IMG/VR virus record: IMGVR_UViG_3300008255_000097
Location: 123,225-187,224 of that record
Source: a virus
DNA length: 64,000 nt
Strand: one strand, 5' to 3'
Notes under the pieces: generated by a model
The model's input: the letters and a program-made list of their open reading frames with translations, nothing else
Told to the model about the DNA's origin: nothing
Database searches by the model: none
Shown: in pieces, positions 12,787-45,577 of the stretch
How positions within the stretch are numbered: the first letter of the stretch is position 1
How the letters are laid out: each line of letters begins with the position of its first letter
Position numbers and translations under genes: made by a program

Positions 12787-12798
12787 ACTATTTTGAAA

Positions 12799-12876
12799 TG
12801 GTGGGCTCTGCCGGACTTGAACCGACAACCTGAGGCTTATGAGGCCACTGCTACTAACCAATTGAGCTAAGAGCCC
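12799..12876 (-). tRNA. tRNA-Met/Ile(CAT)
   Basis: Anticodon loop CTCATAA, T-arm GTCGGTTCAAGTCCGGC, acceptor GGGCTCT/AGAGCCC, CCA encoded. Confidence 0.7.
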
Positions 12877-13025
12877 TATTTATTCTTTATAAGTAATCTT
12901 TATCTTACCACATCTCCATAGGATTCTTCCAATTATGTACCCGATCAATAAGATAAACCATATTCCGGTTAAGATCTTAATGAACCAAATATCTATAAAG
13001 TACATCATTATTATTCTCCTATGAG

Positions 13026-13102
13026 TGGTAGACGCTATGGGGTTCGAACCCATGACCCCTGCATTAAAAGTGCAATGCTCTGTCCAACTGAGCTAAGCGT
13101 CC
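13026..13102 (-). tRNA. tRNA-Lys(TTT)
   Basis: Anticodon loop CTTTTAA, T-arm ATGGGTTCGAACCCCAT, CCA encoded. Confidence 0.75.
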
Positions 13103-14464: not shown

Positions 14465-14803
14465 TTAATAAGAATCCCTCAGATAGTTCATCATTTTAAT
14501 CAACCGATTATGAGGCATAGGAATCAATTCGGTATTGTTTAAATATTCTGCCATTTCTGCAGGAGTTTTTTGTGTACCAACCATGCCATCAGTCATTGAG
14601 ATCAAAACTGTTCCTTTCGAACTACCTCCTATGAAACCTATCTTATGTGTCCATTTAGCAGTCCATCTATCAGGCGTCCAACTCCTATCTTTGTTTACAT
14701 TACAAATCGGCTTATAAACAAAAATACCGCAAACAACATCTTTTTCTTCCCAGATATATTTCATAATATCCTTAAGTATAGAGGCGCCTGCAGATTTGCT
14801 CAA
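14465..14803 (-). CDS. hypothetical protein
   Basis: 112-aa ORF. Confidence 0.35.
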   Translation of the reverse strand: MSKSAGASILKDIMKYIWEEKDVVCGIFVYKPICNVNKDRSWTPDRWTAKWTHKIGFIGGSSKGTVLISMTDGMVGTQKTPAEMAEYLNNTELIPMPHNRLIKMMNYLRDSY

Positions 14804-15887
14804 GCAATTTTTTAATCATTCTTTGCTCAATCGGGTGATTATCTAGATGTAGAAACGCACACTTCGTTTTTTCAGTTGATCCATACGCTTCCTGGATACG
14901 GCGAGCTACCTCTTTACGTTCAATAGTACGAAGAGGTTCTACAAACTTCTCAACATGCGCTAGCATTTTATCTAGTTCTTGCTTTGCATTGCAAACTTTA
15001 GAAACCAGACCTTGAGCCATCTGAACACACTCCCAATCAAAGTCAGCTGTCAACTGATCAATATATTCTTGGTAAGTTGGACATCCTCTTTCGACAAACA
15101 TTTCAAGAACCGACTTCATCGTGCAATGAGATAAGAACGCATGCTTAGCGAGGTATTCAGTTCCTTTTAGTTTGAGTATCTGTTGGTGGTCTTTTCCGAA
15201 GTAGACACAAACACCTTCTTTACCTTTGAATGCTCTTACAGCATCAACCATATCAGATACAGAATTGAAATCGTATGTCCGAGCTCGCTCAACATTCATC
15301 ATGACAGCAACCCCGTCAAGTTTATCTTGAGATGCAATTTTGTATTCTTCGTGTTTGACTATACCGGTTAAGAACAACTGTGGTTCACTGCCGTAGTCAA
15401 GTACAATTCGATTGGTAGGAGTTACCCATTCAAACAAAAGAGTATGCTTTTCAGAATTAATCAACTGATTATCAAATGCAACAGGATACTTTTCCATGAG
15501 CAAGTCAATCTCTTGACCGTTCTCGAGATCACGTGCATTAACTGTGCCGCGTGTTCGAATGATGAGCTCTCCACACCACTTCGAAACAATCAAGCAGGAG
15601 CCGTCAATCTTTTCAACAGCTACAGCGCCCGTGAGGCTTTCTGGCGGCTCACATAAATCAGCACGTTCACCCCAATTGAAGAATTTAGGATACGACAAAG
15701 AGACAGGAACTTTTAGCTCCTTTAACCACATAGAACTACGAAACTTAACTAGATCAGAGTTCCAGTTAATATCAAACATGTTACCTTTGCTTGGATAAAT
15801 AAGAACACAGGCATCACCAGCAACTTCACAGTCTCTAACTATGAATCCCTTTTTAAGCAACTCAATTTGTTCTTCTTCCCATGTCAT
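14772..15887 (-). CDS. RNA ligase (Rnl1-like)
   Basis: Motif I VEKIDGSCLIV (KxDG); the 371-aa length matches T4 Rnl1. Confidence 0.55.
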   Translation of the reverse strand: MTWEEEQIELLKKGFIVRDCEVAGDACVLIYPSKGNMFDINWNSDLVKFRSSMWLKELKVPVSLSYPKFFNWGERADLCEPPESLTGAVAVEKIDGSCLIVSKWCGELIIRTRGTVNARDLENGQEIDLLMEKYPVAFDNQLINSEKHTLLFEWVTPTNRIVLDYGSEPQLFLTGIVKHEEYKIASQDKLDGVAVMMNVERARTYDFNSVSDMVDAVRAFKGKEGVCVYFGKDHQQILKLKGTEYLAKHAFLSHCTMKSVLEMFVERGCPTYQEYIDQLTADFDWECVQMAQGLVSKVCNAKQELDKMLAHVEKFVEPLRTIERKEVARRIQEAYGSTEKTKCAFLHLDNHPIEQRMIKKLLEQICRRLYT

Positions 15888-19548: not shown

Positions 19549-19836
19549 TTATATATCCAGGTCTAGTTGTTTAGGTTTAGTTGGTTCTACTTTCGGGGGT
19601 GCCGGTGGTACCTCCACTATATTCCAATAGCTTAATTCTATTCGATCATTTAACTCTCTCGGTGATGGTATACCAGGATTTCCAGCCTTCCACTTACCCT
19701 TAAAGTTTGTCCAAGCCTCTTTACGAGTATCGGCAGTTGTGTAAGCATATTTGTTTAACGGTTCCTTTGTCAGGTTGTGTACTATTGCCCATACAGCCAT
19801 TTTATCTCCTATAAATCTTAAATCGATGCAATGCAA
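19549..19836 (-). CDS. hypothetical protein
   Basis: 95-aa ORF. Confidence 0.35.
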   Translation of the reverse strand: MHCIDLRFIGDKMAVWAIVHNLTKEPLNKYAYTTADTRKEAWTNFKGKWKAGNPGIPSPRELNDRIELSYWNIVEVPPAPPKVEPTKPKQLDLDI

Positions 19837-21271
19837 ATTGTTTTAACTCTTCTTCAGTAGCATCAAACTTTTCAGAGTTAATAATCCATTCATGGACATC
19901 TTTCATGATTCGACCAATCAGTGGTTTGTTATCACGTATATTTAAGTCTGGTACCCATTTGAGAAGTTTACTCCCATCAATAAGTTGTTTGAGTCTATTT
20001 TTTAATCCTGCACTTCCCCCACTGACAGACATTTTCTGTAGCACTTCTTCTGCATATTTCATCTTCGCTTCATATCCTTCTGGATCTGCGAGCGGCTCAC
20101 CTCGACTCATTTCATCTGCATAAACAACATCCTTCAACACAGACCAATTAATATCGCTAACAAGATCAACAATCTTCTTCTTAGTTAGTCTACTTCCAAT
20201 ATAATGAGCCTTCATATGACCCGCAGCAGCAAACGAAATCGATTCAACGTCTGCACTGGAGATTTTTAAACGCTCACCAATTTGTTTAATTAATGGAAGC
20301 CCTGCAGTCTCGTGACCGTAATATGTATGCTTACCGTCACGATTTCTGTATGTGATTCCTTTGCCAACATCATGCAATAAAACTGCTATGTTAGTAACTG
20401 GATCGATTGAACGACTAGCATGTACAGCAGCGATGGTATGCTGATAACAATCCCCTTCAGGGTGATGGTGTGGAGCTTGTTTCAATCCTTGCAGAGCTTT
20501 TATCTCCGGAAGAATTTTTTGTAGCAGTCCTACTCTATCGAGATGTTTTATATAGTTTGCAAGAGACTTGCCAGTATGTGAAGCACTGTATAGCTCCTCT
20601 CTTACTCTCTCTTTTGCTAGGCTAACTGTATGACCTTGTTTAATTAATTTTTTTGCTGCTTCATATGTATCATGTTCAATATTGAAGTTGAGCTTCGATG
20701 CAAATCTAAACAGCCTATAAATTCTTAATGCATCCTCTTGGAATCGTTCTTCAGCATTGCCGACTGCACGGAGCATATTGGACATGAGATCCTCGAATCC
20801 TCCATAGTAGTCGTATATATTTGCCGCGGCATCGATCCCGAGGGCGTTAACAGTAAAATCTCTCCGGGCTGCATCGGTTTGAAACGACTCCGCTTTCTCG
20901 ACTTTGTCTGGTCTCCTATTATCTGAGTAACCAACTTCAGTCCTAAATTGAGCAATTTCATAGCTAAATCCTTCCCACTTCACTGTCACTATACCAAAAT
21001 CTTTTGATTTTCCGATATCATGAGTTTGAAACGCTTGTTCGATATCATTGATATCAATATTAGTTGCAATATCAACATCTTTGATTGGTTTATGAAGCAA
21101 CAAATCCCGTACAGTACCACCGACAATCAAACTCTGGGAAGATGGAAAGCGATCATCTAGCTCTCTAAGTAGAGATACGCCGGCGGAGAGCATGGGGTTT
21201 TTTGCGATTTCTTGTTCCCATATTTCGATTATTGGTGTGTTATTTATTTTCATAATGACTCGATAAACCAT
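19802..21271 (-). CDS. cca: tRNA nucleotidyltransferase (CCA-adding enzyme) with HD domain
   Basis: Head-domain motif GGTVRDLLLHKPIKDVDIAT, HD motif LLHDVGK, 489 aa. Confidence 0.8.
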   Translation of the reverse strand: MVYRVIMKINNTPIIEIWEQEIAKNPMLSAGVSLLRELDDRFPSSQSLIVGGTVRDLLLHKPIKDVDIATNIDINDIEQAFQTHDIGKSKDFGIVTVKWEGFSYEIAQFRTEVGYSDNRRPDKVEKAESFQTDAARRDFTVNALGIDAAANIYDYYGGFEDLMSNMLRAVGNAEERFQEDALRIYRLFRFASKLNFNIEHDTYEAAKKLIKQGHTVSLAKERVREELYSASHTGKSLANYIKHLDRVGLLQKILPEIKALQGLKQAPHHHPEGDCYQHTIAAVHASRSIDPVTNIAVLLHDVGKGITYRNRDGKHTYYGHETAGLPLIKQIGERLKISSADVESISFAAAGHMKAHYIGSRLTKKKIVDLVSDINWSVLKDVVYADEMSRGEPLADPEGYEAKMKYAEEVLQKMSVSGGSAGLKNRLKQLIDGSKLLKWVPDLNIRDNKPLIGRIMKDVHEWIINSEKFDATEEELKQFALHRFKIYRR

Positions 21272-21594
21272 AATGTTTTTACATTACCTACTTCTTTAAA
21301 CCGTACAGAATTTTTAACTTTTTTCTTATATGCTCGCAACCGTTCTTTTAGTTCTACATAACGTTTTATTGATGTCTTTGCGTTTTCCACTGTTGTGTAG
21401 GTTACATGAAATTCGTCGTTATGTTTTACATCAATCTCATTTAATTTACGAGCAATTTTATCACCAGAAATATACAGATCACTCCAGATCGGCATAAAAA
21501 TAGATCTAATATAAACTCTAAATTCATCCCGAAACATATTGTTAATTTGTTGAATTTTATACTGCATTTGAACGTTCCATAAGAAGCATTTCAT
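21250..21594 (-). CDS. hypothetical protein
   Basis: 114-aa ORF. Confidence 0.35.
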   Translation of the reverse strand: MKCFLWNVQMQYKIQQINNMFRDEFRVYIRSIFMPIWSDLYISGDKIARKLNEIDVKHNDEFHVTYTTVENAKTSIKRYVELKERLRAYKKKVKNSVRFKEVGNVKTLWFIESL

Positions 21595-22084
21595 ATCGTT
21601 TCTGTATTTCTTCAGTCAATTGCCACCTACCGAGCATTTTCTCGATTACAAATTTTGGAACGTTATGCACTCCATAGTGACACAATTCACTTACACACCT
21701 CTTTAAGTCCCATCCTACAACCTGATCCGGTTTCACATTACGCTGTTGGAGATAATATTCAATATTCCGCCACCAGTCACTAATTGACTCTTGGAATATA
21801 ATTTCATATCCGAGTCGAACTGCAGCTACCGCATACGGGTCGATTTCCTTCCAGGTCGTATTGGTATTATCAACAACGATAGGAGTTATACCTTTCTGCA
21901 TAGCTTCGGCCACTCGTTGCTGATTCCATCGATGTGCTTGACCGATCTTTGCAATATCAAAATCATAATTAGGTCCCCAGTATTCATCTGTTGAGAATAT
22001 GTTTTCCTTACTTGCAAGTGTTTTTGCAGTAAACGACTTACCTGCCCCAGGAATACCACGCATAATATAGCAAATTTTCTTCAT
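21557..22084 (-). CDS. P-loop kinase (polynucleotide kinase-like)
   Basis: Walker A GIPGAGKSFTAKTL; 175 aa; sits in the RNA-repair neighbourhood. Confidence 0.55.
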   Translation of the reverse strand: MKKICYIMRGIPGAGKSFTAKTLASKENIFSTDEYWGPNYDFDIAKIGQAHRWNQQRVAEAMQKGITPIVVDNTNTTWKEIDPYAVAAVRLGYEIIFQESISDWWRNIEYYLQQRNVKPDQVVGWDLKRCVSELCHYGVHNVPKFVIEKMLGRWQLTEEIQKRYEMLLMERSNAV

Positions 22085-22162
22085 GAATCTCCTTTTTATA
22101 ACACATATTATAGCGAATCTAATAGGAGATGCAATAAATAATTAAAATGGAGATACATTTCT

Positions 22163-23254
22163 ATGACATATGAAAAACTAATTCAGCGGCTCCTCGAGCG
22201 TACAGACAATTTTCCTGAGCCAACAGATGAACCTCCACTAGAAGGTAAGCCTAGCGCTTCAGCTATTATTCCAGGTTCAAAAGAAGACTTTTTTAATGAA
22301 TTAGTAAAAAAGGGATACAAGATTGAACAAGCGCCTGTTGATCCAGAGGCTGATGCTATGTGGGATCATGATCCAACTGACCCACAAACTACATGTGAAG
22401 ATGCAAAAGAAAAAATAGACCTAGCAAAATTAAGACTTGAGCGTGGGTTCTTCGCATTAGGTTCATTTTTAAATTATGTGAATATGGTCTGTAATGACCC
22501 ACGAATTGCATCTGCTGCTGTTGACCAGTCTGGTAATTTTTATTACAATAGTGATTTTATTAGTAAATTACCAATTGGTCAAGTTGCTGGACTAATAATG
22601 CATGAAGTCGCTCATATTGGAATGGGAGACCTCTTTAGATCAGAAGGACTCGACGGTAAACGCTGGAACATTGCAGCTGATTATGTTAATAATTGGTATA
22701 TAATGAACGATTTAGTTTCTCTGAATGCAGGACAAGAAGATGATGGTGAAGAAGGACTAAAACCTATACCTAGAGGTGGAGCACAAATTGTTATTAGTCT
22801 TCCAGTCGGAGGTCTTTATCCGGATCCGGATGGAATAATTCGACAAGTTCGTCTAGACAAAGAGAATGTATTAATCTTTCCAGACGCTAAACAAATAGAT
22901 CTTAATATGAGATCAACAGAAGAAGTATATGAAATGTTGAAAGAGCTTGATGATGATGTAATAGAAGCTATGAATGATGATCGATTTGATTCACATGTAT
23001 CGGCTACAAGTATTAATGCGGTTACAATTGAAGAGGTTGTAACAGAAGGTGGCAGCGGCGGTAGCGGGGGTAAAGGGCCAATAATTCCGGCAGACTTAAA
23101 AAATCTCTTAGTTATCGATAAACGTACCGGGCAGTTAGCTATTGTGGTTAATACAAACGACACGAACAAAACTGCAACTATTATTCCATTATCCAATCAG
23201 GAAGTTGAAACTATAAAGAGAGAATTTGATCTTAATGATCTACCAATACAATGA
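22163..23254 (+). CDS. HExxH metallopeptidase-like protein (vWA-partner type)
   Basis: LIMHEVAHIGMGD, C-terminal Gly/Ser-rich linker GGSGGSGGKG, ATGA overlap with the downstream vWA gene. Confidence 0.5.
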   Translation: MTYEKLIQRLLERTDNFPEPTDEPPLEGKPSASAIIPGSKEDFFNELVKKGYKIEQAPVDPEADAMWDHDPTDPQTTCEDAKEKIDLAKLRLERGFFALGSFLNYVNMVCNDPRIASAAVDQSGNFYYNSDFISKLPIGQVAGLIMHEVAHIGMGDLFRSEGLDGKRWNIAADYVNNWYIMNDLVSLNAGQEDDGEEGLKPIPRGGAQIVISLPVGGLYPDPDGIIRQVRLDKENVLIFPDAKQIDLNMRSTEEVYEMLKELDDDVIEAMNDDRFDSHVSATSINAVTIEEVVTEGGSGGSGGKGPIIPADLKNLLVIDKRTGQLAIVVNTNDTNKTATIIPLSNQEVETIKREFDLNDLPIQ

Positions 23255-24798
23255 ATAAATTTATCATATTTTTTGAAGCAAACAGTAAAGTAGATGTCGA
23301 TCAACTCGGAGGTATTCATCTACCTGACACAATTATCAAAGATATAATGTCTCGTAGTAATCCAGTTAATCGTACATTTGAGGAAATTGTTCGTGTTGCA
23401 GAATTAGTTGATCTTGTACCTCCAGAAGGCAGCGGAGGAGGCGGAGGTGGAGGTGGGGCACCTGCCCCGCGAGTTGATCCGCTACTAGATACAATGGCAA
23501 CAAAAGTTAGAAAGCCTAAATCAGACGGAGGGAAACCTGGAGAAGGAGAGCCAGGAGAGCCAAGTAAACCTGGAGAGCCAGGTAAGTCTGGAAGGCCAAA
23601 TACCCCAGGAGAGCCAGGGGAGCCTGGAGAACCTGGGGAGGGTACACCTGGTGAAGATGATAGTACACCAGGAGGACAACCCTCTGCTACCAGTGATGAA
23701 CCTAGTGCTGATGCGGATTACGGTGATACTGTTTCAGTAACACCTAATCCCGACGGTACGTTTACTGATCAGGATGGTAATATCTGGACTGCTGATCAGA
23801 TTCGAGATGCAGTACAGCGCGGCACACAGGTTAAAGGTGTTAGTAAACTATCAAAAGGATCGAGTGATCGTGTGCATGAAGCTGGTACTTTAATTACAAA
23901 AGAGGAACAGCGTAGCAAGCAAGGTATTGAGCAAATAGAAGATGAATATTCAGATGATAAGCCATCACAAAGCAGTGAAAATCAGTCAGTTGATGATATT
24001 AAGCGCGGGCTACGTAATACTAAATTATCCAAACATGATATAGAAGCACTCAAAGCCAAAATGGAAGAGCAAGCGGAGAAAGCGCGCGAGCAGATTGTCG
24101 AAGACCCTGATGCTACCGATGATTTTTGGAAGCAGAGAGCTAGAGAAGGTGCTGATATATCAACATCAAAAGGTTCTGGTGGAGGTGGTTCTAGTAATGA
24201 AAAGCTCACTGATAAAATAGTTAAAAGATTAAAAGCTAATATTAACTGGAAAGATGCACTAAAACGATTATTTACAAAACCAGGTGATAAGTATGAAGAC
24301 TGGAGACATCCATCTCGTCGTACATACGGTACAAGAGCTTATATGCCAATCCAGCGTGAAGATGAAAGTGAAATAGATGACTTTGCTGTAGCTATTGACC
24401 AATCAGGTTCATTGATGAGCAGTGAGGCTTTTTCCAAATTTATGAATGAGGTTATTAACTTGTTTAAGACAATTGATAACGCTCGCGGAGTTGTCTTAGT
24501 TTATGATGATAAAGTAACTGATGCAGTAGAGATTACACCTCAAAACTATAATAAACTATTAAATGTTAGACCTTCAGGTGCTGGTAATGATATGGATGCA
24601 GTACCAGCATATATGGAACGCCATATGAAGAATTTTAGACCGAAGGGTGTTATTTTCTTCACGGATGGATATGAAGAGCGGCCAAACTTACCAAAGAAAA
24701 TTAACGGTCAAATTGTAGATTATATTTTCTTTTTAGTTCCAGGAGGTAAAAGAGAGACCGTTGAGGGATTTGGACCAATTTATCCTATTGTTATGTAA
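23251..24798 (+). CDS. vWA (MIDAS) domain protein with collagen-like Gly-X-Y repeats
   Basis: GEPGEPSKPGEPGKSGRPNTPGEPGEPGEPGEGTPGE repeats and the MIDAS motif AIDQSGSLMS in the C-terminal third. Confidence 0.65.
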   Translation: MNKFIIFFEANSKVDVDQLGGIHLPDTIIKDIMSRSNPVNRTFEEIVRVAELVDLVPPEGSGGGGGGGGAPAPRVDPLLDTMATKVRKPKSDGGKPGEGEPGEPSKPGEPGKSGRPNTPGEPGEPGEPGEGTPGEDDSTPGGQPSATSDEPSADADYGDTVSVTPNPDGTFTDQDGNIWTADQIRDAVQRGTQVKGVSKLSKGSSDRVHEAGTLITKEEQRSKQGIEQIEDEYSDDKPSQSSENQSVDDIKRGLRNTKLSKHDIEALKAKMEEQAEKAREQIVEDPDATDDFWKQRAREGADISTSKGSGGGGSSNEKLTDKIVKRLKANINWKDALKRLFTKPGDKYEDWRHPSRRTYGTRAYMPIQREDESEIDDFAVAIDQSGSLMSSEAFSKFMNEVINLFKTIDNARGVVLVYDDKVTDAVEITPQNYNKLLNVRPSGAGNDMDAVPAYMERHMKNFRPKGVIFFTDGYEERPNLPKKINGQIVDYIFFLVPGGKRETVEGFGPIYPIVM

Positions 24799-24803
24799 GG
24801 AGT

Positions 24804-27746
24804 ATGATGAACATATTTAATGAAGAAATAAGAAAGCTTTATGAAGCAAATGACCTAGAAGGGTTTGATCCAGTCCCAGGTAAGGGCCAGGGAGGTGTAG
24901 GCGGATGGAAAGATGTTGGAATGTATCGCCCACAAGGTATGGGAACAACTGCAACAGATCCAGATGCGCCTGGATTACCAGCAATCAACCATGCAACGTA
25001 TAAATTTTTAGTTGAAGAATCTTATGGTGTTGAAGAAACTGAAGCAGAGCTTGGAACATCAAAAAAGCCTCTTCTTGTATTGGGTCGACCGGGGGTTGGT
25101 AAGTCTTTTGTTGTTAGAGATGTACTCGAAGACATGGCTTCAAAATATCCGAAGGCGGGTAACCCAGAGGAAATGCGCGAACCAGTTGTGTTTAACCAGC
25201 TTGATGTAGATAAGCAGCAAGCAGTTTTAAATACTCCAGGTGACTATTTTATTCTTATTGATGTACGAACATCACAACTAGAGTCAGTTGACTTTATCGG
25301 TATTCCAAAATTCAATACTGAAACTGGTCAAATTGAGGCTAATCAGAGGAAAGATGTAAAATCTCTATACGATCAAGGATTTACTCCAGATGAAATACAA
25401 GCTGTTTTAAGTAAAAACACGCAAGAATATTTACGAACAGCAAAATATAAATGGGCATATTTATCAACTCATCCAGATTCTCGTGGGTATCTATTCTTCG
25501 ATGAAATTAATCAAGGCACGCCTGATGTTATTAATGCTATGTATGCCGTAGTGCTAGATAGGGTTATATTTGATAAAAAAATATCTGATGGTGTTGCAAT
25601 TGTTGCAGCTGGTAATTTACAGGAGCACGATCCTGCGTCGCAAAACCGTCCGATGCCAAAAGCGTTGATACGTCGGTTCCAGCAAGGAGTCGCATCTTTG
25701 GTTATCGATCCAGATGATTGGTTAAGTTGGGCGATTAGTAAGAATATTCATCCAACTATTATTGCATTTGTCTCATCAAATAAAGCGCAAAACTTCTACC
25801 ATCGATTTGATGCAGATAGTCAAAATAATCGATTTGCAGATCCAGACTCAATTACTAATCTTTCAAAATTTTTATACAACGCAGAACGCCGATTCTTTTC
25901 GCAAGATGTTGACGCTCGTAACTATGCTGATCTGGTTCGAGAGTATGATCGTATCGCTAGAGCTATTGTTGGCTCACAGTGGGCAGCTAACTTTGTTAAG
26001 TTTGTTACAGAGCTCAAATCTGATAAATTTATCAGTCCTAGAAAATTAGGTGCTGGACAGCGATGGAAGAATATCAACACTGCACAGACATTAACTATGA
26101 TGCTCGTTACAACTGATCCACAACTAAAAAAACCTCAATCTCAAGCTCTTGCATCTGCTATTCTTAATTGGCGGGATAAGACTGAAGCAGATGATAGACA
26201 GACCGCCAATAATGTTATCGGTGCACATCAAATTGAAGGATTAACAAATGAATTAGTTATTTTTAAAGAGTCTTTAAAAACTTTTAGTAAATCTGACAAA
26301 AGACTATCTGATGAACAAATATCCCAGGCTGTGGAGCAAGCTGTAGGGGGTGAATATCAAAGTGAATTTACCACTTATGCTAACTCTGATGAAACAACTA
26401 ATCTCTTAGCTGTTAACCATGCAAGCTATTTAAAGACATTAGAACACGCTTGGGATACAAAAGAGTCATTACTAGTGTACGGTGACCCTGGTATCGGAAA
26501 GAGCTGGGCTGTTAAGAAGTTCGCACAACAGAAAGCAGAAGAGCTTGATTTACCGTTTGCAGATGTTAGTAGTATGCCAAAAGATGAGCTATCAAAAGTA
26601 GCGAGTAATTCTAACGGGTATTTTCTATTCATGGATGTTCGTGTTGCACAGATGACAACCGCTGACTTTATTGGTATTCCGAATGTATTTGATGCAGAGA
26701 AGGAGTATCTAGAAACTAAACCGTATCTATGGGTATGGCTGGCAACTAGACCAAATGTTGTTGGTATACTATTCTTTGATGAAATGAATCAAGCAAGTAA
26801 ACAAGTATTGAAAGCTATGTACTCAGTTGTTAATGCAGATGATAAATTTATTTTTGACCGTAAGATATCAAAAGATATTCTTGTTATTGGAGCTGGTAAC
26901 TTAAAATCTCAAGAAAACGCAGCCGCTGTCAAAACTCAACTACCTATTGCACTAACTAGACGATTTAAAGCAGGTACTGTTGTACTTGAACTTGATCCAG
27001 AAGAGTGGATAGATTGGGCTCTCAATCAAACAGGAACGCCAAATGAAATTCATCCAATCTTATTATCGTTTATCATGTCTAGACCGCATCCAAAAGCATA
27101 TATCTTTTACAAAGAGGGGGATTACGACTATTCCCAGGATGTAACACCGGATACACTAAGAGCACTGTCTCAGAACATCCGTCAATCTGAACAAAAAATG
27201 AAACAAGCTCTTCAAAGTGGTAGTATAGATGAAAATCAAGCAAAACAAATGTTTACAAAAGATGTACAGACCCATGTCCGTGCTAATACACCACCTAACT
27301 ATGCGAATGAACTTCTTGATTTCTTATATAAGATTGTAAATATTAATTGGGACCAGATTGTAGCAAATAAAGAGATGTTTAGAGATCCGCAGGCACTCCG
27401 TCGACAGGGAGAAGAGGGTAAGAGTATGTTAGCAACTATATTTGCTTGGTTACCTTATAAGATAGAAGTACTAAAAACTATTATTGCAAGAGATCCAGAA
27501 ATGCAGAGCCCTATAACTCGTCAAAGAGTAAAAGAAATTATTGATTTAATGGGAATATACCATAATAACTATCGTAGTGCATTCTTCTCGTTTATGAAAC
27601 GCTTAATTGGTGATACAGCTATTAAGGATTTTATGATCAAATATGTTGCAAACAACCCCCATTTAGATGCAGAAACAAAAAACAAAGCAAAAGAGATTTT
27701 TATTTCTACCGCAACACGTACACAACAAGCACTTGGAGGAAAGTAA
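24804..27746 (+). CDS. tandem AAA+ ATPase (two MoxR/AAA_5-type modules)
   Basis: Two Walker A sites (LGRPGVGKSF and YGDPGIGKSW), two Walker B sites (LFFDEINQ and LFFDEMNQ), two sensor/arginine-finger segments (AAGN...RRF and GAGN...TRRF); 980 aa. Confidence 0.75.
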   Translation: MMNIFNEEIRKLYEANDLEGFDPVPGKGQGGVGGWKDVGMYRPQGMGTTATDPDAPGLPAINHATYKFLVEESYGVEETEAELGTSKKPLLVLGRPGVGKSFVVRDVLEDMASKYPKAGNPEEMREPVVFNQLDVDKQQAVLNTPGDYFILIDVRTSQLESVDFIGIPKFNTETGQIEANQRKDVKSLYDQGFTPDEIQAVLSKNTQEYLRTAKYKWAYLSTHPDSRGYLFFDEINQGTPDVINAMYAVVLDRVIFDKKISDGVAIVAAGNLQEHDPASQNRPMPKALIRRFQQGVASLVIDPDDWLSWAISKNIHPTIIAFVSSNKAQNFYHRFDADSQNNRFADPDSITNLSKFLYNAERRFFSQDVDARNYADLVREYDRIARAIVGSQWAANFVKFVTELKSDKFISPRKLGAGQRWKNINTAQTLTMMLVTTDPQLKKPQSQALASAILNWRDKTEADDRQTANNVIGAHQIEGLTNELVIFKESLKTFSKSDKRLSDEQISQAVEQAVGGEYQSEFTTYANSDETTNLLAVNHASYLKTLEHAWDTKESLLVYGDPGIGKSWAVKKFAQQKAEELDLPFADVSSMPKDELSKVASNSNGYFLFMDVRVAQMTTADFIGIPNVFDAEKEYLETKPYLWVWLATRPNVVGILFFDEMNQASKQVLKAMYSVVNADDKFIFDRKISKDILVIGAGNLKSQENAAAVKTQLPIALTRRFKAGTVVLELDPEEWIDWALNQTGTPNEIHPILLSFIMSRPHPKAYIFYKEGDYDYSQDVTPDTLRALSQNIRQSEQKMKQALQSGSIDENQAKQMFTKDVQTHVRANTPPNYANELLDFLYKIVNINWDQIVANKEMFRDPQALRRQGEEGKSMLATIFAWLPYKIEVLKTIIARDPEMQSPITRQRVKEIIDLMGIYHNNYRSAFFSFMKRLIGDTAIKDFMIKYVANNPHLDAETKNKAKEIFISTATRTQQALGGK

Positions 27747-28048
27747 TGGAAAAAGACAATTTTAGTTTTAATAGAACAGCACAAAGCTTAGTAAAAGATA
27801 CTGATTCTGATGAATTAGTAGAGCCATCTAAATTTTTTACACAAGCTATGAATGAGCTTCAAGAACGATATAACATTCTACAAAGCTCTAAACAATTCAA
27901 CGAAGCAAAGAGTCATTTATTAACTATTGTTAAAACAACCAGTAGATTGACTGAAGATGAACAAGACTATTATGCAAATCGGGTAAATAATCTAAGAGGT
28001 ATAGTACAATTGTTAATGTTTCTACATCAAGAAATAAAAGGATTATAA
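27746..28048 (+). CDS. hypothetical helical protein
   Basis: 100 aa, ATGA-coupled to the ATPase gene. Confidence 0.4.
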   Translation: MEKDNFSFNRTAQSLVKDTDSDELVEPSKFFTQAMNELQERYNILQSSKQFNEAKSHLLTIVKTTSRLTEDEQDYYANRVNNLRGIVQLLMFLHQEIKGL

Positions 28049-29382
28049 TGAGAACACACTCTGAAACGCTATTAGAGCAAATTTACCGTAAGCAAGTTTT
28101 AAAAACAGATGCACCTGTATTAGTGGAAGCATCAGTTTTTGCAAAGTATTTTGAAATGCCCGGAAAGGCAATGGAAACTATTCATGATGAAATAGGTATT
28201 ACAGCAGATGCAGTGCCCGAAAGACCTATTGATGTAAGTAAGAGTGATAGACCGTTTGATCCGACTGGGATGAAACAGCAAAGATGGTCAGGGAGAGGAC
28301 TAGCATCAACACCAGATGCGAGTTTAGGACCAAAGCATAAAGAATTGAGAAAAGTCTTTGAGAGAGGTGATGGACTTTTTGTTGTTAACCCTGAGACAAA
28401 TACAAGAGTTATTATCAAACATAAAACCGAAAATCCATATCAAAGCCCAGCAACACGTGACAGCAGACACGTACCTAAGCAGTCTACATATAATGTATGG
28501 ATATTCGATGAAGCTGGTGATTTGAGAAAGAAGATTAACTGTCCAATGACAGGAAGAACAGAGAGAATTCAATATGTGGATCCTACCGGTAAGATTGCAA
28601 CTGGTGCTCCTATCGTTATGCATAAGATTCCAGAGAAAGGTGTGTACGTTGAAGAGTCGGATCTCTTAGCTTGGAAAGCATATGAAAAGAATAGCTCACT
28701 TTCTCCGCCAGCTACATATACTTCAGAAGAACTTCAAAAGATGCATAATAGCGGTCAAAATATAATCTTTGTTGAGCCTATTCCGAAGGATGCAAGTAGT
28801 AATATGTATGTTCGTTATGTTGATCAAACAGATGCAAAAGCGTTCATAATACCTAATACAGCTTTTCGTGCCACTAAAAAAGATGATCTAGGTTATGTCG
28901 GTGTTAGTTCCTACAGAACCTCTTTGAATAAAGTATCAACTCCTGTAAGACCTACTAGAGAAATTAGCAAATTAATAATCAATAAGTACGGAAAAGCAAT
29001 TAAAGCAAAAATTCAATCAGTTTTAGAACCTCTAAAAAATGGTATTGTTGATGTATTAAGCGATCTTCGTGTTGATACTGAAGTTGTTCAAAAATTGATA
29101 ACAGATTATCGTACCTTTTTAAAGCTACAGAATGATGTATCACAGCTAGATCTTGCAACTGACATTGCGAATTTTCTTGATTTGGACACAGATACTAACG
29201 CAAGAGTAAAAGGAGGTAATATAGGAGATTATGGTATAACGACACGTGATGGTGTTGTTTTCTTCAAAAGTGAAGAATCTTTTAACCAGTTTCTCCGTGA
29301 ATTCACTCTCGCTTATATTAAAACTTTTACTTCAACACAAACTGAGGAAGCTGTAGTTGATTCTATGGTAGATATCTTCTAA
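28048..29382 (+). CDS. hypothetical protein
   Basis: 444 aa, ATGA-coupled; no recognisable motif. Confidence 0.45.
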   Translation: MRTHSETLLEQIYRKQVLKTDAPVLVEASVFAKYFEMPGKAMETIHDEIGITADAVPERPIDVSKSDRPFDPTGMKQQRWSGRGLASTPDASLGPKHKELRKVFERGDGLFVVNPETNTRVIIKHKTENPYQSPATRDSRHVPKQSTYNVWIFDEAGDLRKKINCPMTGRTERIQYVDPTGKIATGAPIVMHKIPEKGVYVEESDLLAWKAYEKNSSLSPPATYTSEELQKMHNSGQNIIFVEPIPKDASSNMYVRYVDQTDAKAFIIPNTAFRATKKDDLGYVGVSSYRTSLNKVSTPVRPTREISKLIINKYGKAIKAKIQSVLEPLKNGIVDVLSDLRVDTEVVQKLITDYRTFLKLQNDVSQLDLATDIANFLDLDTDTNARVKGGNIGDYGITTRDGVVFFKSEESFNQFLREFTLAYIKTFTSTQTEEAVVDSMVDIF

Positions 29383-29390
29383 ATACTAAT

Positions 29391-29879
29391 ATGAAAAGTA
29401 CAACAAAAAAATCATCTAGAACTAAAACTATAAAAAAGAAACTACCTGTGGCAACAGATAAAGACATTAACGCGCTAGCAAGTAGTATTATTGCAGAGAG
29501 AGAAGAAGCGCGAGTTAAAGAAGATATCCAACTCGAGGACCCTGATATTAGTATCGATCTACCTGCTGCTGTACACAGTTTTGAAGAAGAACCTCGTTCT
29601 ATAGAGCAACCTAAACAAGTTACTCGTAAAAATATTACAGAAGGAAAAACACCTTTAACACCTATCATTATAAAGAAGCACGATAGAGAAATATTCAACC
29701 ATCTCTCCGAGCAGTTCGGCGAACAAGATGGTAGCTTCTTTGTTTTGAATGAACTATGTCAATGGCGAACTAGATCAGATGGTAGGAAGAAGATAAAGAC
29801 AGTATTAGTCGAAGATATAAACGGCTATAGATATCAAATATTCTTCGATGTCACAGCAACTAGCTTTCTCCATGGGTAG
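29391..29879 (+). CDS. hypothetical basic protein
   Basis: 162 aa with a Lys-rich N-terminus; last gene of the plus-strand island. Confidence 0.4.
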   Translation: MKSTTKKSSRTKTIKKKLPVATDKDINALASSIIAEREEARVKEDIQLEDPDISIDLPAAVHSFEEEPRSIEQPKQVTRKNITEGKTPLTPIIIKKHDREIFNHLSEQFGEQDGSFFVLNELCQWRTRSDGRKKIKTVLVEDINGYRYQIFFDVTATSFLHG

Positions 29880-30111
29880 AGTCTGCTAATTTTTCAAACA
29901 TCATTCTCGCTCCGAGCGTTGCTGCTTCCATCAACCTATCACCTTGCTCTATCAGCTGTAAATTTGGGTGATGTTTAATTGTATTATTAATTGTATATTG
30001 AATTTGTTCTCTAATTTCCTCAATACAAGCCTCACAAAATACTTTATCATCCGGTAGTAACTCGCTCATTTTATGGCTACTCTCCTCATGAAGTGACCCC
30101 AACTTTTGCAC
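29860..30111 (-). CDS. hypothetical protein
   Basis: 83-aa ORF. Confidence 0.3.
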   Translation of the reverse strand: MQKLGSLHEESSHKMSELLPDDKVFCEACIEEIREQIQYTINNTIKHHPNLQLIEQGDRLMEAATLGARMMFEKLADSTHGES

Positions 30112-30656
30112 ATATGCTTATCTGTGTTGATATTATCCAGTGGGGTTTCCCATGCAGGTTTATGTGGTTTGTGTTTTAGTTTCATTCCAGCCTGTGACGG
30201 TGTACGATCTGCCTTATACTGATTGCATTTAAAACAGGAGGCAATTACATTATCCCATGTTGTTAGCCCGCCTTGTGCTCTAGGTATAATATGATCAACT
30301 GTAAGGTCTTTTAGTTTGAATTGTTTTCCACAATATCCACACTTACACCCATCTCTTGTAAATACATTCTGTCGACTGTATTTTACGCACCGAGTTGGTA
30401 GATGATTGAATGTAACAGATACTATAATTTCTGGAATCGCGATCGTTATTGACGTTCCTTTTACCTTATAATAGTCTTCAGCATTACGCAGAGAAAAGTC
30501 AAGCCAATCAGGGTACCGATAAGCAGTCAGATCGTGGTCGAGTGAGTTTACCTTCTCTTGGTAAATCAAGCTCATAGCTCTCTGCCAATCAATAATATAG
30601 ATTGGTGCCCAGCTCTTATTTAAAACCAATACATCATGCTTTTTCTTTTTTGACAT
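30066..30656 (-). CDS. HNH endonuclease
   Basis: CGYCGKQ...LTVDHIIPRAQGGLTTWDNVIASCFKCNQYK. Confidence 0.7.
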   Translation of the reverse strand: MSKKKKHDVLVLNKSWAPIYIIDWQRAMSLIYQEKVNSLDHDLTAYRYPDWLDFSLRNAEDYYKVKGTSITIAIPEIIVSVTFNHLPTRCVKYSRQNVFTRDGCKCGYCGKQFKLKDLTVDHIIPRAQGGLTTWDNVIASCFKCNQYKADRTPSQAGMKLKHKPHKPAWETPLDNINTDKHMCKSWGHFMRRVAIK

Positions 30657-33555: not shown

Positions 33556-34941
33556 TTAGAGAGCTGCGTTGGCGCGCACTTGATCAAATGTGATCTCGTT
33601 TACCATCAACCCGTTAACAAACACAGGCTTTAGACGGTTAACTGTTGATTCTGTAGCCTCTTCAACTCGTATTGTTTCGAACTGACCGTTATTACTTGTC
33701 AATATCAAACGACCACTCTTCGACTTCTTGCTGGTATCTAACGGATTCTTCTGGATATCATACCACACATCACTACGCTGCTGAGCGCTGCTTTTGAAAG
33801 CAAACCGTTGTGTATCGCGATTAATTTTCTGTAGAAGACCACCGCCCATACCAAATACAATATTGTCTGCACACCAGTGGTTGTTGCGCATGGTATACAG
33901 AATACCGCGAATACCGTTGTAGTCAATACCATCACCCCAAAGCGTACCGACCTTTGGATTAAGCTGGCGATATCCTTTAGCGTTTTTGGTTGAGCCAAAT
34001 ACCGTATCAAGACCTTCCAGCACATCAATTGTTACTGAATCAGGATCACCGGAGTCGGGACGAAATACAACCTTACCATCTCGTGCAAGAATTTGGTCTT
34101 TAAATTCTTTTGCATACTCATCAATGAAGCGACGATAGTTGTATGAGTCGATAACCACACTAAGGATGCCCTTTGGGAATCGATCAAGCATCTGTTTGAA
34201 TACAGCTTTCTCTCCTGATTCACCGCGAGCAGTCATAACACTGTGCTCCGACGCTGGAACACTATATGCAAGACCGTTGATAGGTGCGTCATAATACTCT
34301 CGAGCATACTGCATTGCTGCAATAGTGTCCGTACCCATGAAGTTGACGATGTGACCTGCACCAGCGATGCCTGCTGCTTCACATTGGTTGACACCACGGA
34401 ACCCAAAGTCATGTAACATGAAGTTGAGTGCACCCATGTTGCCGCCAGTTGCCTCTAAATAGTAATTAAGAAGAATCTTAACCTCTCGACTCAAAGACGC
34501 AACAGTCGATGGACCCCAGACGTGTGTAAGGAGTGACTCAAAGTGATTTGTCAATGGAGCACACCGTGGATCGGTATTTTCAACAGTCATCATCACGTTG
34601 TTGATATCAACTGGAGTACCTTCCGGTACAGCCATAATCCTCAACGGAAGTCGCCCGCCATGGACCCTGAGAATATGCTCCCACATCTCGCGATTAAAAT
34701 ATTCAGCACTTCCAAGATGTGCAACGACGAGCTCTTCACCTTCGTCGATATCTTTCTTTGTGATCCCTTTCACTAAATACTCTTTGATGAGATACTGAAG
34801 ACCGAAAAATACGGTCTTGTTGAATGTTGCACCAACCCGTGCTTCAAAGTATGAATAAACTGTCTGTGTATCGCTAGGATACATAGCGTGGTGTAACACT
34901 TTGTAGGAATCGGTTAGTACTGTCAGGTTCTCTTTATTCAT
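33556..34941 (-). CDS. nadV: nicotinamide phosphoribosyltransferase (NAMPT/NadV)
   Basis: N-terminal LTDSYKVLHHAMYP...VYSYFEAR matches the NAMPT signature; 461 aa. Confidence 0.8.
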   Translation of the reverse strand: MNKENLTVLTDSYKVLHHAMYPSDTQTVYSYFEARVGATFNKTVFFGLQYLIKEYLVKGITKKDIDEGEELVVAHLGSAEYFNREMWEHILRVHGGRLPLRIMAVPEGTPVDINNVMMTVENTDPRCAPLTNHFESLLTHVWGPSTVASLSREVKILLNYYLEATGGNMGALNFMLHDFGFRGVNQCEAAGIAGAGHIVNFMGTDTIAAMQYAREYYDAPINGLAYSVPASEHSVMTARGESGEKAVFKQMLDRFPKGILSVVIDSYNYRRFIDEYAKEFKDQILARDGKVVFRPDSGDPDSVTIDVLEGLDTVFGSTKNAKGYRQLNPKVGTLWGDGIDYNGIRGILYTMRNNHWCADNIVFGMGGGLLQKINRDTQRFAFKSSAQQRSDVWYDIQKNPLDTSKKSKSGRLILTSNNGQFETIRVEEATESTVNRLKPVFVNGLMVNEITFDQVRANAAL

Positions 34942-35396: not shown

Positions 35397-36332
35397 CTAT
35401 ACTTCTTTAGCGGTTTCAGATGGACAAAGAACTTTGTCTTGTAGCGCTTTGTATAGTATGCGATGGTTTGGAACGATATTATCTAATGTAATGTCACTCA
35501 CATTAAACCATTTACATTCTGCGATATCATCCGCAGCGCGAGGTGACCCGAAGAGGTACTCTGTGTAATAAAACAGAGTGCGAATACAATCATCACATGA
35601 CTGGTAACGCCAGTCTTCAATATTGTAGCTTCCGAGGTAATTCTTATATGTGATAGGTGTCGTTTCGATGTCAGGAATCTCTTCAGATAGCTCGCGGTTA
35701 GCAGCAGCTTCGTTATTCTCATCACGACTGTCGACAAACCCTCCTGGGAAGCGCCATAAGATCTCATTCGACTTCCTTGCGAGGAGTACTTGGCTGTGAT
35801 CTGGTTTAATAACAGCTATATCAACGGTCGTATAGACAGTATCAAAACGTTGCCATGAAGCCCAAATAGCACCGTGACGAAATTCACGACATGCATGAAC
35901 TTGGTTCTTGACCATTGCACGGATTTCAGAACCAGATACCCAATGCTCTTGGATAAGCTCCTGGGTATTGTATCGTCCTTTGTAGTGGTCGATAAATGAA
36001 TCACGTCCACCATATAGGGTTACGGATTGCTTTGGACCGACAAGTGACCGGATTTGATCATCGAGCTTCGAACTCCAGATCTCATCGAGTGGTTCGTCTT
36101 TAATATAAGCAACCATAACACTCGGAAATGCTTCGTTGATCATATGCTGACGAGATTGGAAGTCTAGTGGGTCTTCAGAATTGAAGACAGGTGACAATCC
36201 AAGAAAGACGATAACTTTATCGTGCTCATCACAGATGGATTGAATAAGTTCTTTATGCGCCTCATGTAGATCGGGAACTTGAAACCGACCTACAATTATA
36301 CCAACATCAGTTTTATCACGTTTAACCTTCAT
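35397..36332 (-). CDS. natV: bifunctional NMN adenylyltransferase / Nudix hydrolase (NatV-like)
   Basis: GIIVGRFQVPDLHEAHKELI is the NMNAT nucleotidyl-binding motif; C-terminal Nudix box ANRELSEEI. Confidence 0.75.
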   Translation of the reverse strand: MKVKRDKTDVGIIVGRFQVPDLHEAHKELIQSICDEHDKVIVFLGLSPVFNSEDPLDFQSRQHMINEAFPSVMVAYIKDEPLDEIWSSKLDDQIRSLVGPKQSVTLYGGRDSFIDHYKGRYNTQELIQEHWVSGSEIRAMVKNQVHACREFRHGAIWASWQRFDTVYTTVDIAVIKPDHSQVLLARKSNEILWRFPGGFVDSRDENNEAAANRELSEEIPDIETTPITYKNYLGSYNIEDWRYQSCDDCIRTLFYYTEYLFGSPRAADDIAECKWFNVSDITLDNIVPNHRILYKALQDKVLCPSETAKEV

Positions 36333-37107: not shown

Positions 37108-37494
37108 TTAGTACGCTGGGAGATTACCAGTTATAAGTTTAATTTTGTCAAAATCTGCAGGTCCAATTGATAGCCCTGTTGTCGTAAGAATAGGTCGACG
37201 TAAAATCTCTGAATAGATAGTATCTTTAAACAGCCAAACCGGTAAACTTACCTGGTTTGCTTCCTTAAAAATGATGTCTAATTCATCAAAATTGTTTACA
37301 GCAAGAACTGATATATACGGATCTTTCATCCAATCTCTTACATCAGGAGGAAAAATATCCTTTATAGTTTTATCTGGATTCTCCCAAATCTTCTGGCGCA
37401 TAAAGTGATCTGAAATATGGGCGGCTTGAGCCATTGCTGCCCCCAGTGAAAGGTGCAGATCGCGTCTAATAATAATTACATGTCGTGTATTCAT
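37108..37494 (-). CDS. peptidyl-tRNA hydrolase, PTH2 family
   Basis: VIIIRRDLHLSLGAAMAQAAHIS matches the Pth2 core (DLxMxxGKxAAQxxHA). Confidence 0.6.
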   Translation of the reverse strand: MNTRHVIIIRRDLHLSLGAAMAQAAHISDHFMRQKIWENPDKTIKDIFPPDVRDWMKDPYISVLAVNNFDELDIIFKEANQVSLPVWLFKDTIYSEILRRPILTTTGLSIGPADFDKIKLITGNLPAY

Positions 37495-37983: not shown

Positions 37984-38355
37984 TGGTGGACCCGGGGGGA
38001 GTCGAACCCCCGTCCGTATTAGAAGCCGTCATACTTTCGTTCACATGCTTTGCAATGATTTATCGACCCATGCTCGTCTATCTAAGTTATATGCTTTTAG
38101 TAAGCTGATATAGTTCTTTCCACTATTCAAAGTCCAGGTTCATTTACGGTTCTACCTATCTCCGGTCTTTGTAATGACGCTAATAACACTTACCAAGACA
38201 ATCTCAGTGCGTTTGCGGGCTAGGTATCTCTACGCAGCCATTTTGAGTTCAGTGTCGCCACTTAATTCTTGTACCCGGATTTTTTACGAGGCCAACCAGA
38301 TATCCTCGGCATGCAAATATAATCTCTAACCTATACGTCGAAACCAAACGGGCCC
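37984..38355 (-). ncRNA. ssrA: tmRNA (ssrA)
   Basis: 3' end GGACGGGGGTTCGACTCCCCCGGGTCCACCA (T-arm plus acceptor plus CCA); 5' GGGCCCG pairs with CGGGTCC and includes G3-U70; GCATGCCGAGG...GGTTGGCCTCGTAAAAAA aligns to the PK1 region; candidate tag frame GGC GAC ACT GAA CTC AAA ATG GCT GCG TAG. Confidence 0.8.
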
Positions 38356-41077: not shown

Positions 41078-41130
41078 ATAAATACTTATGTTCTTGAGCT
41101 CTATTTATATGTGTATATCCACCCCTATCG

Positions 41131-44264: not shown

Positions 44265-44268
44265 AATA

Positions 44269-45497: not shown

Positions 45498-45502
45498 AAA
45501 AT

Positions 45503-45576: not shown

Positions 45577-45577
45577 T

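Follow-up and report, generated by a model that had tools for sequence, protein, structure and literature searches.

The present analysis concerns a block of six genes (g1 to g6) on the plus strand of a 64,000-nucleotide (nt) stretch of DNA from an uncultivated phage, namely positions 123,225 to 187,224 of IMG/VR virus record IMGVR_UViG_3300008255_000097, which is referred to here as the window. The block encodes a predicted zinc peptidase, a protein with a von Willebrand factor A (vWA) domain and a metal ion-dependent adhesion site (MIDAS), an ATPase with two MoxR-type modules, and three further proteins. Judging from sequence comparisons, it very probably represents this lineage's form of the phage MoxR AAA+/vWA/zinc-peptidase module typified by gp24 and gp25 of phage N4. 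The six genes are arranged as follows:

22163-23254, plus strand: g1, 363 amino acids (aa), predicted zinc metallopeptidase
23251-24798, plus strand: g2, 515 aa, vWA/MIDAS protein
24804-27746, plus strand: g3, 980 aa, tandem MoxR-type ATPase
27746-28048, plus strand: g4, 100 aa
28048-29382, plus strand: g5, 444 aa
29391-29879, plus strand: g6, 162 aa

The genes are tightly packed, with g1 and g2 overlapping at an ATGA, g3/g4 and g4/g5 overlapping at a TAATG, and gaps of 5 and 8 nt at the remaining two junctions (g2/g3 and g5/g6), an arrangement that is consistent with a single translationally coupled operon. A preliminary description of this DNA, which was made from its letters without database searches, had reported six coupled plus-strand genes together with diagnostic motifs in the first three. 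All six open reading frames (ORFs) are indeed present where it placed them, and all of the motifs were found, namely HEVAH in g1, DQSGS and a Gly/Pro/Glu-rich run in g2, and duplicated Walker A/B, (A/G)AGN and RRF motifs in g3. It had also described the remaining backbone as transcribed from the minus strand, which is mostly but not entirely the case, as other plus-strand ORFs occur (e.g., 5177-5779 and 46096-46842). GC skew is positive only over 22-30 kb and negative across the rest of the window.

The partner proteins g1 and g2

The following motifs were located in the first two genes:

22601-22615, plus strand: HEVAH (HExxH motif) of g1, aa 147-151
22667-22681, plus strand: NIAAD of g1
23527-23658, plus strand: Gly/Pro/Glu-rich run (GEPGEPG) of g2, aa 93-136, inside the spacer
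24397-24411, plus strand: DQSGS (MIDAS) of g2, aa 383-387
24577-24591, plus strand: GAGND of g2, aa 443-447, MIDAS Thr position
24655-24669, plus strand: FFTDG of g2, which holds the final MIDAS Asp

The g1 protein is a predicted soluble zinc metallopeptidase of the DUF2201_N family, with minigluzincin/M48-like character. It matches Pfam DUF2201_N ('putative metallopeptidase') at 2.7e-11, and H147, E148, H151, N169, A171 and D173 are all invariant in a profile of 11 peptidase domains, for which the nearest solved relative by sequence is minigluzincin MJ1213 (4qhj, 4.7e-05), followed by M48 peptidases. Downstream of the peptidase lie a Gly/Ser linker and a small C-terminal beta domain. The g2 protein consists of a short N-terminal domain, a low-complexity spacer of ~270 aa, and a C-terminal vWA domain that matches Pfam DUF2201 ('VWA-like') at 6.5e-07. 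Since both proteins tile the same PHROGs profile, phrog_1314 (394 positions), with g1 matching over positions 8-147 and g2 over positions 128-377 (4.7e-26), g1 and g2 together correspond in sequence to a single N4 gp25-type protein divided over two genes, of which g1 is the predicted counterpart of the N-terminal half.

Among g2 relatives, the MIDAS DxSGS and the last Asp are conserved in the alignment, whereas at the MIDAS Thr position every tandem-ATPase lineage has Asn (G.GND) in its vWA protein and the single-ATPase relatives keep Thr. The Thr to Asn change coincides with the ATPase duplication described below. A search for g2 homologues returned only close relatives, with results swamped by low-complexity words. 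The Gly/Pro/Glu-rich run had previously been described as collagen-like, but the resemblance proved to be compositional: the longest in-register Gly-X-Y run comprises four triplets (GEPGEPGEPGEG), and Pfam Collagen does not match g2. The collagen-like reading was therefore rejected in favor of a low-complexity linker. A degenerate 9/18-bp DNA repeat lies within g2 at 23544-23640, and in related contigs (numbered here with the prefixes L and P) the spacer is equally long and differs in composition, being Q/G-rich in L010 and acidic/Pro-rich in L008.

The tandem ATPase g3

The two modules of g3 carry the following motifs:

Module 1, aa 1-~480, plus strand: Walker A 25083-25106, Walker B 25491-25505, sensor-1 25605-25616, RRF 25671-25679
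Module 2, aa ~480-980, plus strand: Walker A 26481-26504, Walker B 26769-26783, sensor-1 26889-26900, RRF 26958-26966

In protein coordinates, the Walker A motifs occupy aa 94-101 and 560-567 and the Walker B motifs (LFFDE) aa 230-234 and 656-660, with AAGN at aa 268, GAGN at 696, and RRF at 290 and 719. The full motif sets read GRPGVGKS/LFFDE/AAGN/LIRRF in module 1 and GDPGIGKS/LFFDE/GAGN/LTRRF in module 2. The protein matches Pfam AAA_5 at 39.1 bits (cut-off 22) and phrog_1297 at 5.4e-77, the latter in two stretches. By its motifs, its score above the curated profile threshold and its closest fold, g3 qualifies as a MoxR-type AAA+ ATPase (AAA_5, helix-2-insert clade). Sequence searches of the PDB with two ATPase profiles gave matches to Hsp100 and p97 at the P-loop/Walker-B level only, which are not family-informative.

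The two halves of g3 are mutually 30% identical over 374 columns (E = 6e-48), and the internal duplication apparent in its sequence is real, far beyond chance. A scan of IMG/VR with g3 yielded only single-module relatives; the tandem family surfaced in the protein database, where about ten such ATPases of 946-1121 aa were found among 5.8 billion clusters. Bar conservative variants, the Walker A, Walker B, sensor-1 Asn and RRF motifs are retained in both modules of 10/10 homologues. Because the N-halves and C-halves form mirrored clades in the tree, N-N and C-C identity (~41%) exceeds N-C identity (~32%), and neither half is closer than the other to the nearest single-module relative (L009, 496 aa), the sequences point to one ancient duplication basal to the family, after which both copies stayed catalytically intact, although bootstrap support in the neighbor-joining tree is modest (N clade 50/100, C clade 32/100) and some of the distances are saturated.

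An AlphaFold2 (AF2) model of g3 from a 10-sequence alignment reached a mean predicted local distance difference test (pLDDT) value of 77 and a predicted TM-score (pTM) of 0.72. Dynein ranks first in a Foldseek search with this model, and the best single-module structural matches are the MoxR ATPases CbbQ and NorQ. The comparisons are given below as score, aligned residues and deviation:

CbbQ (single module): 13.2, 217, 3.1 Å
NorQ (single module): 13.1, 209, 3.3 Å
Dynein motor domains: 13.4-13.9, 498-511 residues, 6.2-6.7 Å
Midasin: 10.2, 455 residues, 4.8 Å
Hsp100 and p97 (stacked rings): ~200-260 residues aligned

Assignment of secondary structure with DSSP placed short strands at 254-259, ahead of the sensor-1 strand, and further strands at 169-178 around an invariant DF.GIP motif, where pLDDT is below 50; these are at most candidates for the pre-sensor-1 beta-hairpin and the helix-2 beta-hairpin insert that mark the clade. 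The model suggests that the two modules probably lie side by side, like neighboring modules of the dynein/midasin ring, rather than as stacked rings. In which case, a g3 trimer would form a pseudo-hexamer.

Distribution and genomic setting of the module

A tblastn search with g3 recovered single-module ATPases in 171 phage records, including annotated N4 gp24-like ATPases, and the use of gp563 of phage 121Q as query brought the ATPase family to 816 phage records, which include Schitoviridae, Vequintavirinae, Cronobacter, Aeromonas and Vibrio phages, phage G, and 735-kb uncultured phages. An N4 gp24-like gene followed by an N4 gp25-like (or equivalent DUF2201-type) gene occurs in Roseobacter phage RD-1410Ws-07, in the Rak2-like jumbo phages 121Q (gp563/564) and phAPEC6 (gp265c/264c), and in S-TIM54; the first three carry the annotations 'N4 gp24-like' and 'gp25-like', and S-TIM54 encodes a MoxR-like ATPase next to a protein of the DUF2201 type. 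The family ATPase is also present in phage G, where no DUF2201 partner was identified beside it. In Vequintavirus slur16, the 'MoxR ATPase' gp063 matches 121Q gp563 with an E-value of 3e-25 (6e-26 for other Vequintavirus-sized E. coli phages), and MoxR ATPases of the gp063 type are at least 94% conserved across the genus. Its DUF2201_N + DUF2201 partner is gp071 (L020 1159-2619), which lies ~3.6 kb from gp063 on the other strand. Proteins of the N4 gp25 type are widely labeled 'HNH endonuclease' in RefSeq and PHROGs, slur16 gp071 and the rV5 protein that goes with a 'MoxR ATPase' among them, but what they carry is the HExxH motif of a zinc peptidase together with a vWA domain, and no HNH nuclease.

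N4-like phages have 14 core genes, two of which are gp24 and gp25; in N4 both are middle genes and lie in the non-structural genome region (PMC4193335). Iyer et al. (2021) described a MoxR/metallopeptidase-vWA pair in the 'group 2.2' jumbo phages, for which they proposed a role in virion assembly and processing (PMC7824862). The combination of MoxR, peptidase and vWA as such is not novel, contrary to the preliminary view that this is not a standard phage module. The canonical architecture, in which a single-module ATPase gene precedes a fused partner gene, is nevertheless not that of the block, and intermediate arrangements exist. In L008, the most distant of the tandem loci, peptidase and vWA are fused in a single gene (666 aa), L009 combines a fused partner with a single ATPase, and L010 combines a split partner with a single ATPase. 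As side observations, a thymidylate synthase or dCTP deaminase gene is found near the pair in N4-like and Rak2-like phages (in L001, L002 and L018, thymidylate synthase lies 3-4 genes downstream), and Hsp20 adjoins or lies near the pair in cyanophage S-TIM54 (L003) and in the tandem-ATPase contig L021.

The last three genes of the block had been described as lacking recognizable motifs, and g4-g6 are indeed without a significant family in Pfam, PHROGs, NCBIfam or PADLOC. The g4 product is a small helical protein with weak, sub-threshold family matches only (Pfam, PHROGs and PADLOC), and its homologues follow the ATPase in L006, L021, L022 and L008. The g6 product has a Lys/Arg-rich N-terminus, an acidic middle and a conserved C-terminal domain of ~70 aa; a search of 5.8 billion proteins found only close relatives, and phmmer and hidden Markov model (HMM) searches place homologues in L006, L021, L022 and L008, i.e., in every tandem-ATPase locus with sequence-checkable downstream DNA. 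Genes of matching size follow the tandem ATPase at the g4 and g6 positions of the other two contigs. When the g4 and g6 HMMs were run against all fetched loci, no homologues were found beside single-module ATPases, and L009 and L010 carry a different conserved small protein at this location. An exhaustive HMMER search of 1.84 billion representatives gave only 9 matches to g5, which is lineage-restricted: it is present in L006, L021 and L022 and missing from L008, and similar-sized genes occupy its position in the P0006 and P0008 contigs. The AF2 model of g5 was unusable (pLDDT 55, 9-sequence alignment). At the position of g5 in L009 (9751-11739, plus strand) lies a gene for a 662-aa protein with a leucine-rich-repeat-like C-terminal region and no Pfam match at 1e-3. 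This suggests an accessory slot whose occupant varies between lineages.

Two further features border the block:

22132-22140, plus strand: CAATAAATA box (NATAAATA, T4-late-promoter-like), 23 nt upstream of the g1 start
30066-30656, minus strand: HNH endonuclease gene (Pfam HNH_5, 2e-16), convergent with the block and abutting its 3' end

The NATAAATA box sits in a 78-nt divergent intergenic region (22085-22162). L006 and L022 carry it at the corresponding position, and L021 has GATAAATA there, in upstream DNA that is otherwise poorly conserved. Its exact 9-mer is not enriched in the window. The T4 late-promoter octamer TATAAATA is enriched, with 22 copies in the window against 8.9 ± 2.8 in shuffles (0/100 shuffles reach 22), and several copies stand just upstream of gene starts, e.g., at 41102-41109, 51541-51548 and 57323-57330 (all minus strand). 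This enrichment suggests T4-type late transcription in this phage, and a promoter role of the NATAAATA box is putative. In a sigma-70 promoter scan, promoter-like sites were scarcer than in shuffled sequence, and a search for terminators yielded none that was informative. Homologues of the HNH gene are directly downstream and convergent in L006, L021, L022, L008 and the P0006 and P0008 contigs, often overlapping g6, and another lies on the same strand inside the single-ATPase operon of L009 (12585-13199, plus strand; E 3.9e-32). Because the HNH gene diverges in step with the block (E 4e-62 in L008), it is not a roaming homing endonuclease; it is possibly a seventh component of the block or a mere syntenic neighbor.

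The block had been viewed as an island, which holds for its orientation only. It occurs with the same neighbors in six other contigs, with ATPase identities of 54%, 48%, 44%, 40% and 33%. An AAA_33 kinase gene is usually located upstream (it is absent in L021 and L008), the HNH gene is always downstream, and radical-SAM, NAMPT, NUDIX or TROVE genes lie further along in most of the longer related contigs. Gene content is uniform among these relatives and no effector swapping is seen. The GC content is 0.38 in both block and backbone, the relative synonymous codon usage (RSCU) of the block correlates with that of the backbone at 0.93, which equals the value between backbone halves, and GC at third codon positions is slightly lower in the block (0.23 vs 0.32 ± 0.06). 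A recently acquired mobile island, or an insertion associated with a homing endonuclease, might account for the orientation opposite to the neighbors and for the flanking HNH gene. However, it is hard to reconcile with an identical position and identical flanks in relatives down to 33% protein identity, with the parallel divergence of the HNH gene or with the native GC content and RSCU. Likewise, a megablast search of the 8-kb block against 50,697 phage records found no match, and hence neither near-identical DNA nor a close isolate. We consider such an origin highly improbable, and the foreign-island reading was rejected on the grounds of native codon usage and conserved synteny. The preliminary description had named, as findings that would speak against its reading, a characterized ATPase family with a conserved partner and a conserved core block of known role; of these, the conserved core block and the conserved partner are what we observe.

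The source phage has a tRNA-rich genome of ~236 kb, and its DNA ligase is closest (37%) to that of a 595-kb uncultured huge phage. ARAGORN predicts about 40 tRNA genes at 12709-13102 and 44190-62363, nearly all on the minus strand, as is typical of huge phages, together with two overlapping and dubious long 'tRNAs' on opposite strands at 52343-52459. Other genes in the window include an RNA-repair/translation-rescue neighborhood, after which the tmRNA and the radical-SAM, NAMPT and NUDIX genes are listed:

14772-15887, minus strand: Rnl1-type RNA ligase
19802-21271, minus strand: CCA-adding enzyme with HD domain
21557-22084, minus strand: AAA_33 kinase
37108-37494, minus strand: PTH2
39544-40443, minus strand: second RNA ligase
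41131-42639, minus strand: TROVE/Ro60-like protein (4.5e-18)
37984-38355, minus strand: tmRNA (Rfam, 108.8 bits), tag peptide GDTELKMAA
32116-33135: radical-SAM protein
33556-34941: NAMPT
35397-36332: NUDIX

Y RNAs were not detected in the window at Rfam gathering scores, and no structural gene was recognized among the genes scanned within about 20 kb of the block.

Possible functions and relation to known systems

The preliminary description had offered a chaperone/remodeling machine or an anti-defense cassette as possible roles, which remains the correct range. Our tentative preference, held with something short of even confidence, is that this N4 gp24/gp25-type module has an intracellular, non-structural role in which it remodels or clips a host or defense protein. 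In this scheme, g3 would contribute two MoxR modules that are catalytically intact by motif and that derive from one ancient duplication, and three g3 chains would close into an (A-B)3 pseudo-hexamer rather than two stacked rings. The g1 and g2 proteins, which are halves of one polypeptide in relatives, probably re-associate. By analogy with CbbQ-CbbO, NorQ-NorD, RavA-ViaA and Rea1/midasin, the MIDAS site may capture an acidic residue of a client, whereupon ATP hydrolysis by the ring would pull on or remodel the client and the tethered peptidase would then cleave it. The g4, g6 and usually g5 proteins could be lineage-specific clients, specificity factors or regulators.

That the target is a host or defense protein rather than a virion protein is close to a balanced question, and we lean toward it only with hesitation. 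Several observations are counted in favor of an anti-host role: 1) the middle-gene timing of the N4 pair, 2) the reported requirement for the MoxR ATPase of the Vequintavirinae phage Bas54 specifically against the predicted defense system DS-28 (HIDEN-SEQ preprint, 10.1101/2025.11.20.689424), 3) the RNA-repair surroundings of the block, and 4) the related ATPase family in Vequintavirus. Other points weigh against the scheme. The Bas54 gene, bas54_0063, is a presumed orthologue of slur16 gp063, the two having been equated through annotation and conservation throughout the genus rather than through the sequence of Bas54 itself; in addition, the DUF2201 partner was not reported as required (10.1101/2025.11.20.689424). 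The universality of the module in N4-like phages and in the present lineage resembles that of a core life-cycle function more than that of a typical, variable anti-defense gene, and the NATAAATA box, if it is a T4-type late promoter, would favor a late morphogenetic role. In addition, the Rak2-like homologue was detected in a virion preparation. The ring arrangement is drawn from one AF2 monomer model with the pTM and shallow alignment given above, and MIDAS metal binding could be altered, because the Thr is Asn in all tandem-ATPase lineages. A bolder and, in our estimation, unlikely version holds that the block, possibly with the HNH gene, is a self-contained counter-defense or host-takeover machine built from an asymmetric (A-B)3 ring, a tethered MIDAS adaptor and a detachable zinc peptidase. 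Such a machine would extract and cleave a specific host or defense protein, with g4, g5 and g6 as specificity factors, and its two-module ring would be a natural intermediate towards concatenated rings of the dynein/midasin type. If true, this would give the N4 gp24/gp25 core pair a function.

A role in virion morphogenesis, in which the ring and adaptor assemble a head or tail component that the peptidase then processes, is possible, though we judge it rather unlikely. It follows the proposal of Iyer et al. for jumbo phages and the MoxR-vWA precedent of Acidianus two-tailed virus (ATV) (PMC7824862), and it would suit a core gene that serves an essential life-cycle step as well as the conserved late-promoter-like box. 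The pair adjoins structural genes in 121Q and phAPEC6 and lies between Hsp20 and a virion structural gene in S-TIM54, Hsp20 is encoded ~1.2 kb upstream of the block in L021, and the phAPEC6 ATPase gp265c was found by mass spectrometry in virion preparations with 6 peptides. However, the same phAPEC6 list also contains thymidylate synthase, i.e., non-structural carry-over, and the gp25-like partner went undetected there. Furthermore, N4 gp24 and gp25 are middle genes in the non-structural part of the genome (PMC4193335), the Bas54 gene was identified as needed only on the DS-28 host and so is dispensable on the reference strain, and no structural gene was recognized among the genes scanned near the block, either in the window or in the contigs of relatives.

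Further from our preference stand two readings modeled on cellular MoxR systems. In a classical MoxR role, the module would activate a phage or host enzyme complex, or mature its cofactor or metal center, with the peptidase removing a pro-sequence or inhibitor. The best single-module structural matches, CbbQ (a Rubisco activase) and NorQ (which acts in NO-reductase maturation), point in this direction, as do NAMPT, NUDIX and other metabolic genes near the block in the window and, in two unrelated phage groups, a gene for thymidylate synthase or dCTP deaminase that lies 3-4 genes away from the pair. The proximity of thymidylate synthase may be a coincidence, however, and no candidate client enzyme is conserved beside the block across lineages. 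Nor is there sequence-level membership in the CobS, NorQ or chelatase families: phrog_249 (CobS-type) matches at 4.8e-05 over a short stretch only, Mg_chelatase reaches 0.01, which is below cut-off, and NCBIfam has no equivalog or significant match for any of the six proteins. We regard this role as improbable. An even smaller probability attaches to a phage-borne conflict cassette, acting in superinfection exclusion or as a MoxR-vWA 'ternary' defense system with the peptidase and the HNH nuclease as effectors. Conflict systems built on a MoxR-vWA core with variable effectors are known (PMC7159879), an HNH nuclease gene is always adjacent to the block, and the accessory genes particular to this lineage look like variable sensors or effectors. 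The ternary systems are, however, defined by VMAP, an inactive STAND (iSTAND), an FtsH pair or a vWA-fused beta-propeller (Kaur et al. 2020, PMC7159879), and g4-g6 have no such third-component domains; bpMoxR scores 21.7 bits on the block against a cut-off of 27. PADLOC-DB 2.0 gave weak P-loop-level matches only (mad8 5e-05, IetA 8e-05) and none for g1, g2, g5 and g6, and the block is syntenically fixed and vertically inherited among its relatives. The parallels with CobS/CobT, NorQ/NorD and the ternary systems that had been drawn at the outset thus found no membership in Pfam, PHROGs, PADLOC or NCBIfam, and these systems and Mg-chelatase were rejected as identities for lack of sequence membership and of a third component.

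Whatever its target, a module with this distribution is of some general interest. The MoxR and peptidase-vWA pair is among the most widespread phage gene pairs without an assigned function, and the 'HNH endonuclease' mislabel hides it in hundreds of phage genomes. With regard to the role of the pair, a module from an uncultivated phage adds no testability beyond that offered by N4 or Bas54. What the lineage does display is the plasticity of the module, with fused, split and duplicated forms as well as intermediates, and the modeled side-by-side packing may offer a simple natural example for the evolution of single-module MoxR rings towards the dynein/midasin type.

When the block is compared with known systems, its closest counterpart is evidently the N4 gp24/gp25 type, with which it shares the families phrog_1297, phrog_1314, AAA_5, DUF2201_N and DUF2201, adjacent and co-oriented genes, and intact HExxH and MIDAS DxSxS motifs. 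However, g3 is a 980-aa fusion of two modules, whereas the N4-type ATPases have one module and 330-440 aa; the partner is here divided into two genes with a disordered spacer of ~270 aa; the partner precedes the ATPase, in the reverse of the order found in the isolates examined; the MIDAS Thr is Asn; and the block has three additional co-transcribed genes and a convergent HNH gene. The resemblance to ternary conflict systems consists of a MoxR + vWA core with further linked proteins, but the block is phage-encoded and vertically inherited and lacks both effector variability and the defining third component. CbbQ-CbbO, NorQ-NorD and RavA-ViaA differ in sharing no sequence family with the block (no NCBIfam match; PDB matches at the P-loop only) and in having cellular adaptors without a zinc peptidase, and their ATPases are single-module homohexamers.

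Dynein, midasin (Rea1) and RNF213 belong to the same AAA_5 clade and concatenate their modules into one ring, and in the model both g3 modules superpose together on adjacent ring modules of dynein and midasin. Midasin additionally couples its ring to a MIDAS domain via a long acidic, disordered linker, a further likeness to the block. These likenesses apply at the fold level only (10-12% identity). Moreover, g3 has two modules rather than six, such that oligomerization (probably as a trimer) would still be needed, the MIDAS of the block resides on a separate protein, and there is neither a linker nor a stalk. Another parallel comes from P0011, a bacterial-looking locus on a 14.5-kb JGI contig, which encodes an AAA_5 protein of 259 aa, an AAA_5-RpoA_CTD-AAA_5 protein of 671 aa, in which an RNA polymerase alpha C-terminal domain (8e-21) is inserted, and a fused DUF2201_N/DUF2201 protein of 425 aa. 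Here MoxR modules, three in all, were concatenated independently beside the same kind of peptidase-vWA partner, and the inserted RpoA_CTD is a DNA- or activator-binding domain. The locus differs from the block in module count, in the inserted RpoA_CTD, in its fused partner and in its genomic setting. Therefore, even the tandem feature of g3 has parallels. The type of module was known already; what is new in this phage lineage is the fused, duplicated ATPase, the split partner, the reversed gene order and the lineage-specific accessory genes.

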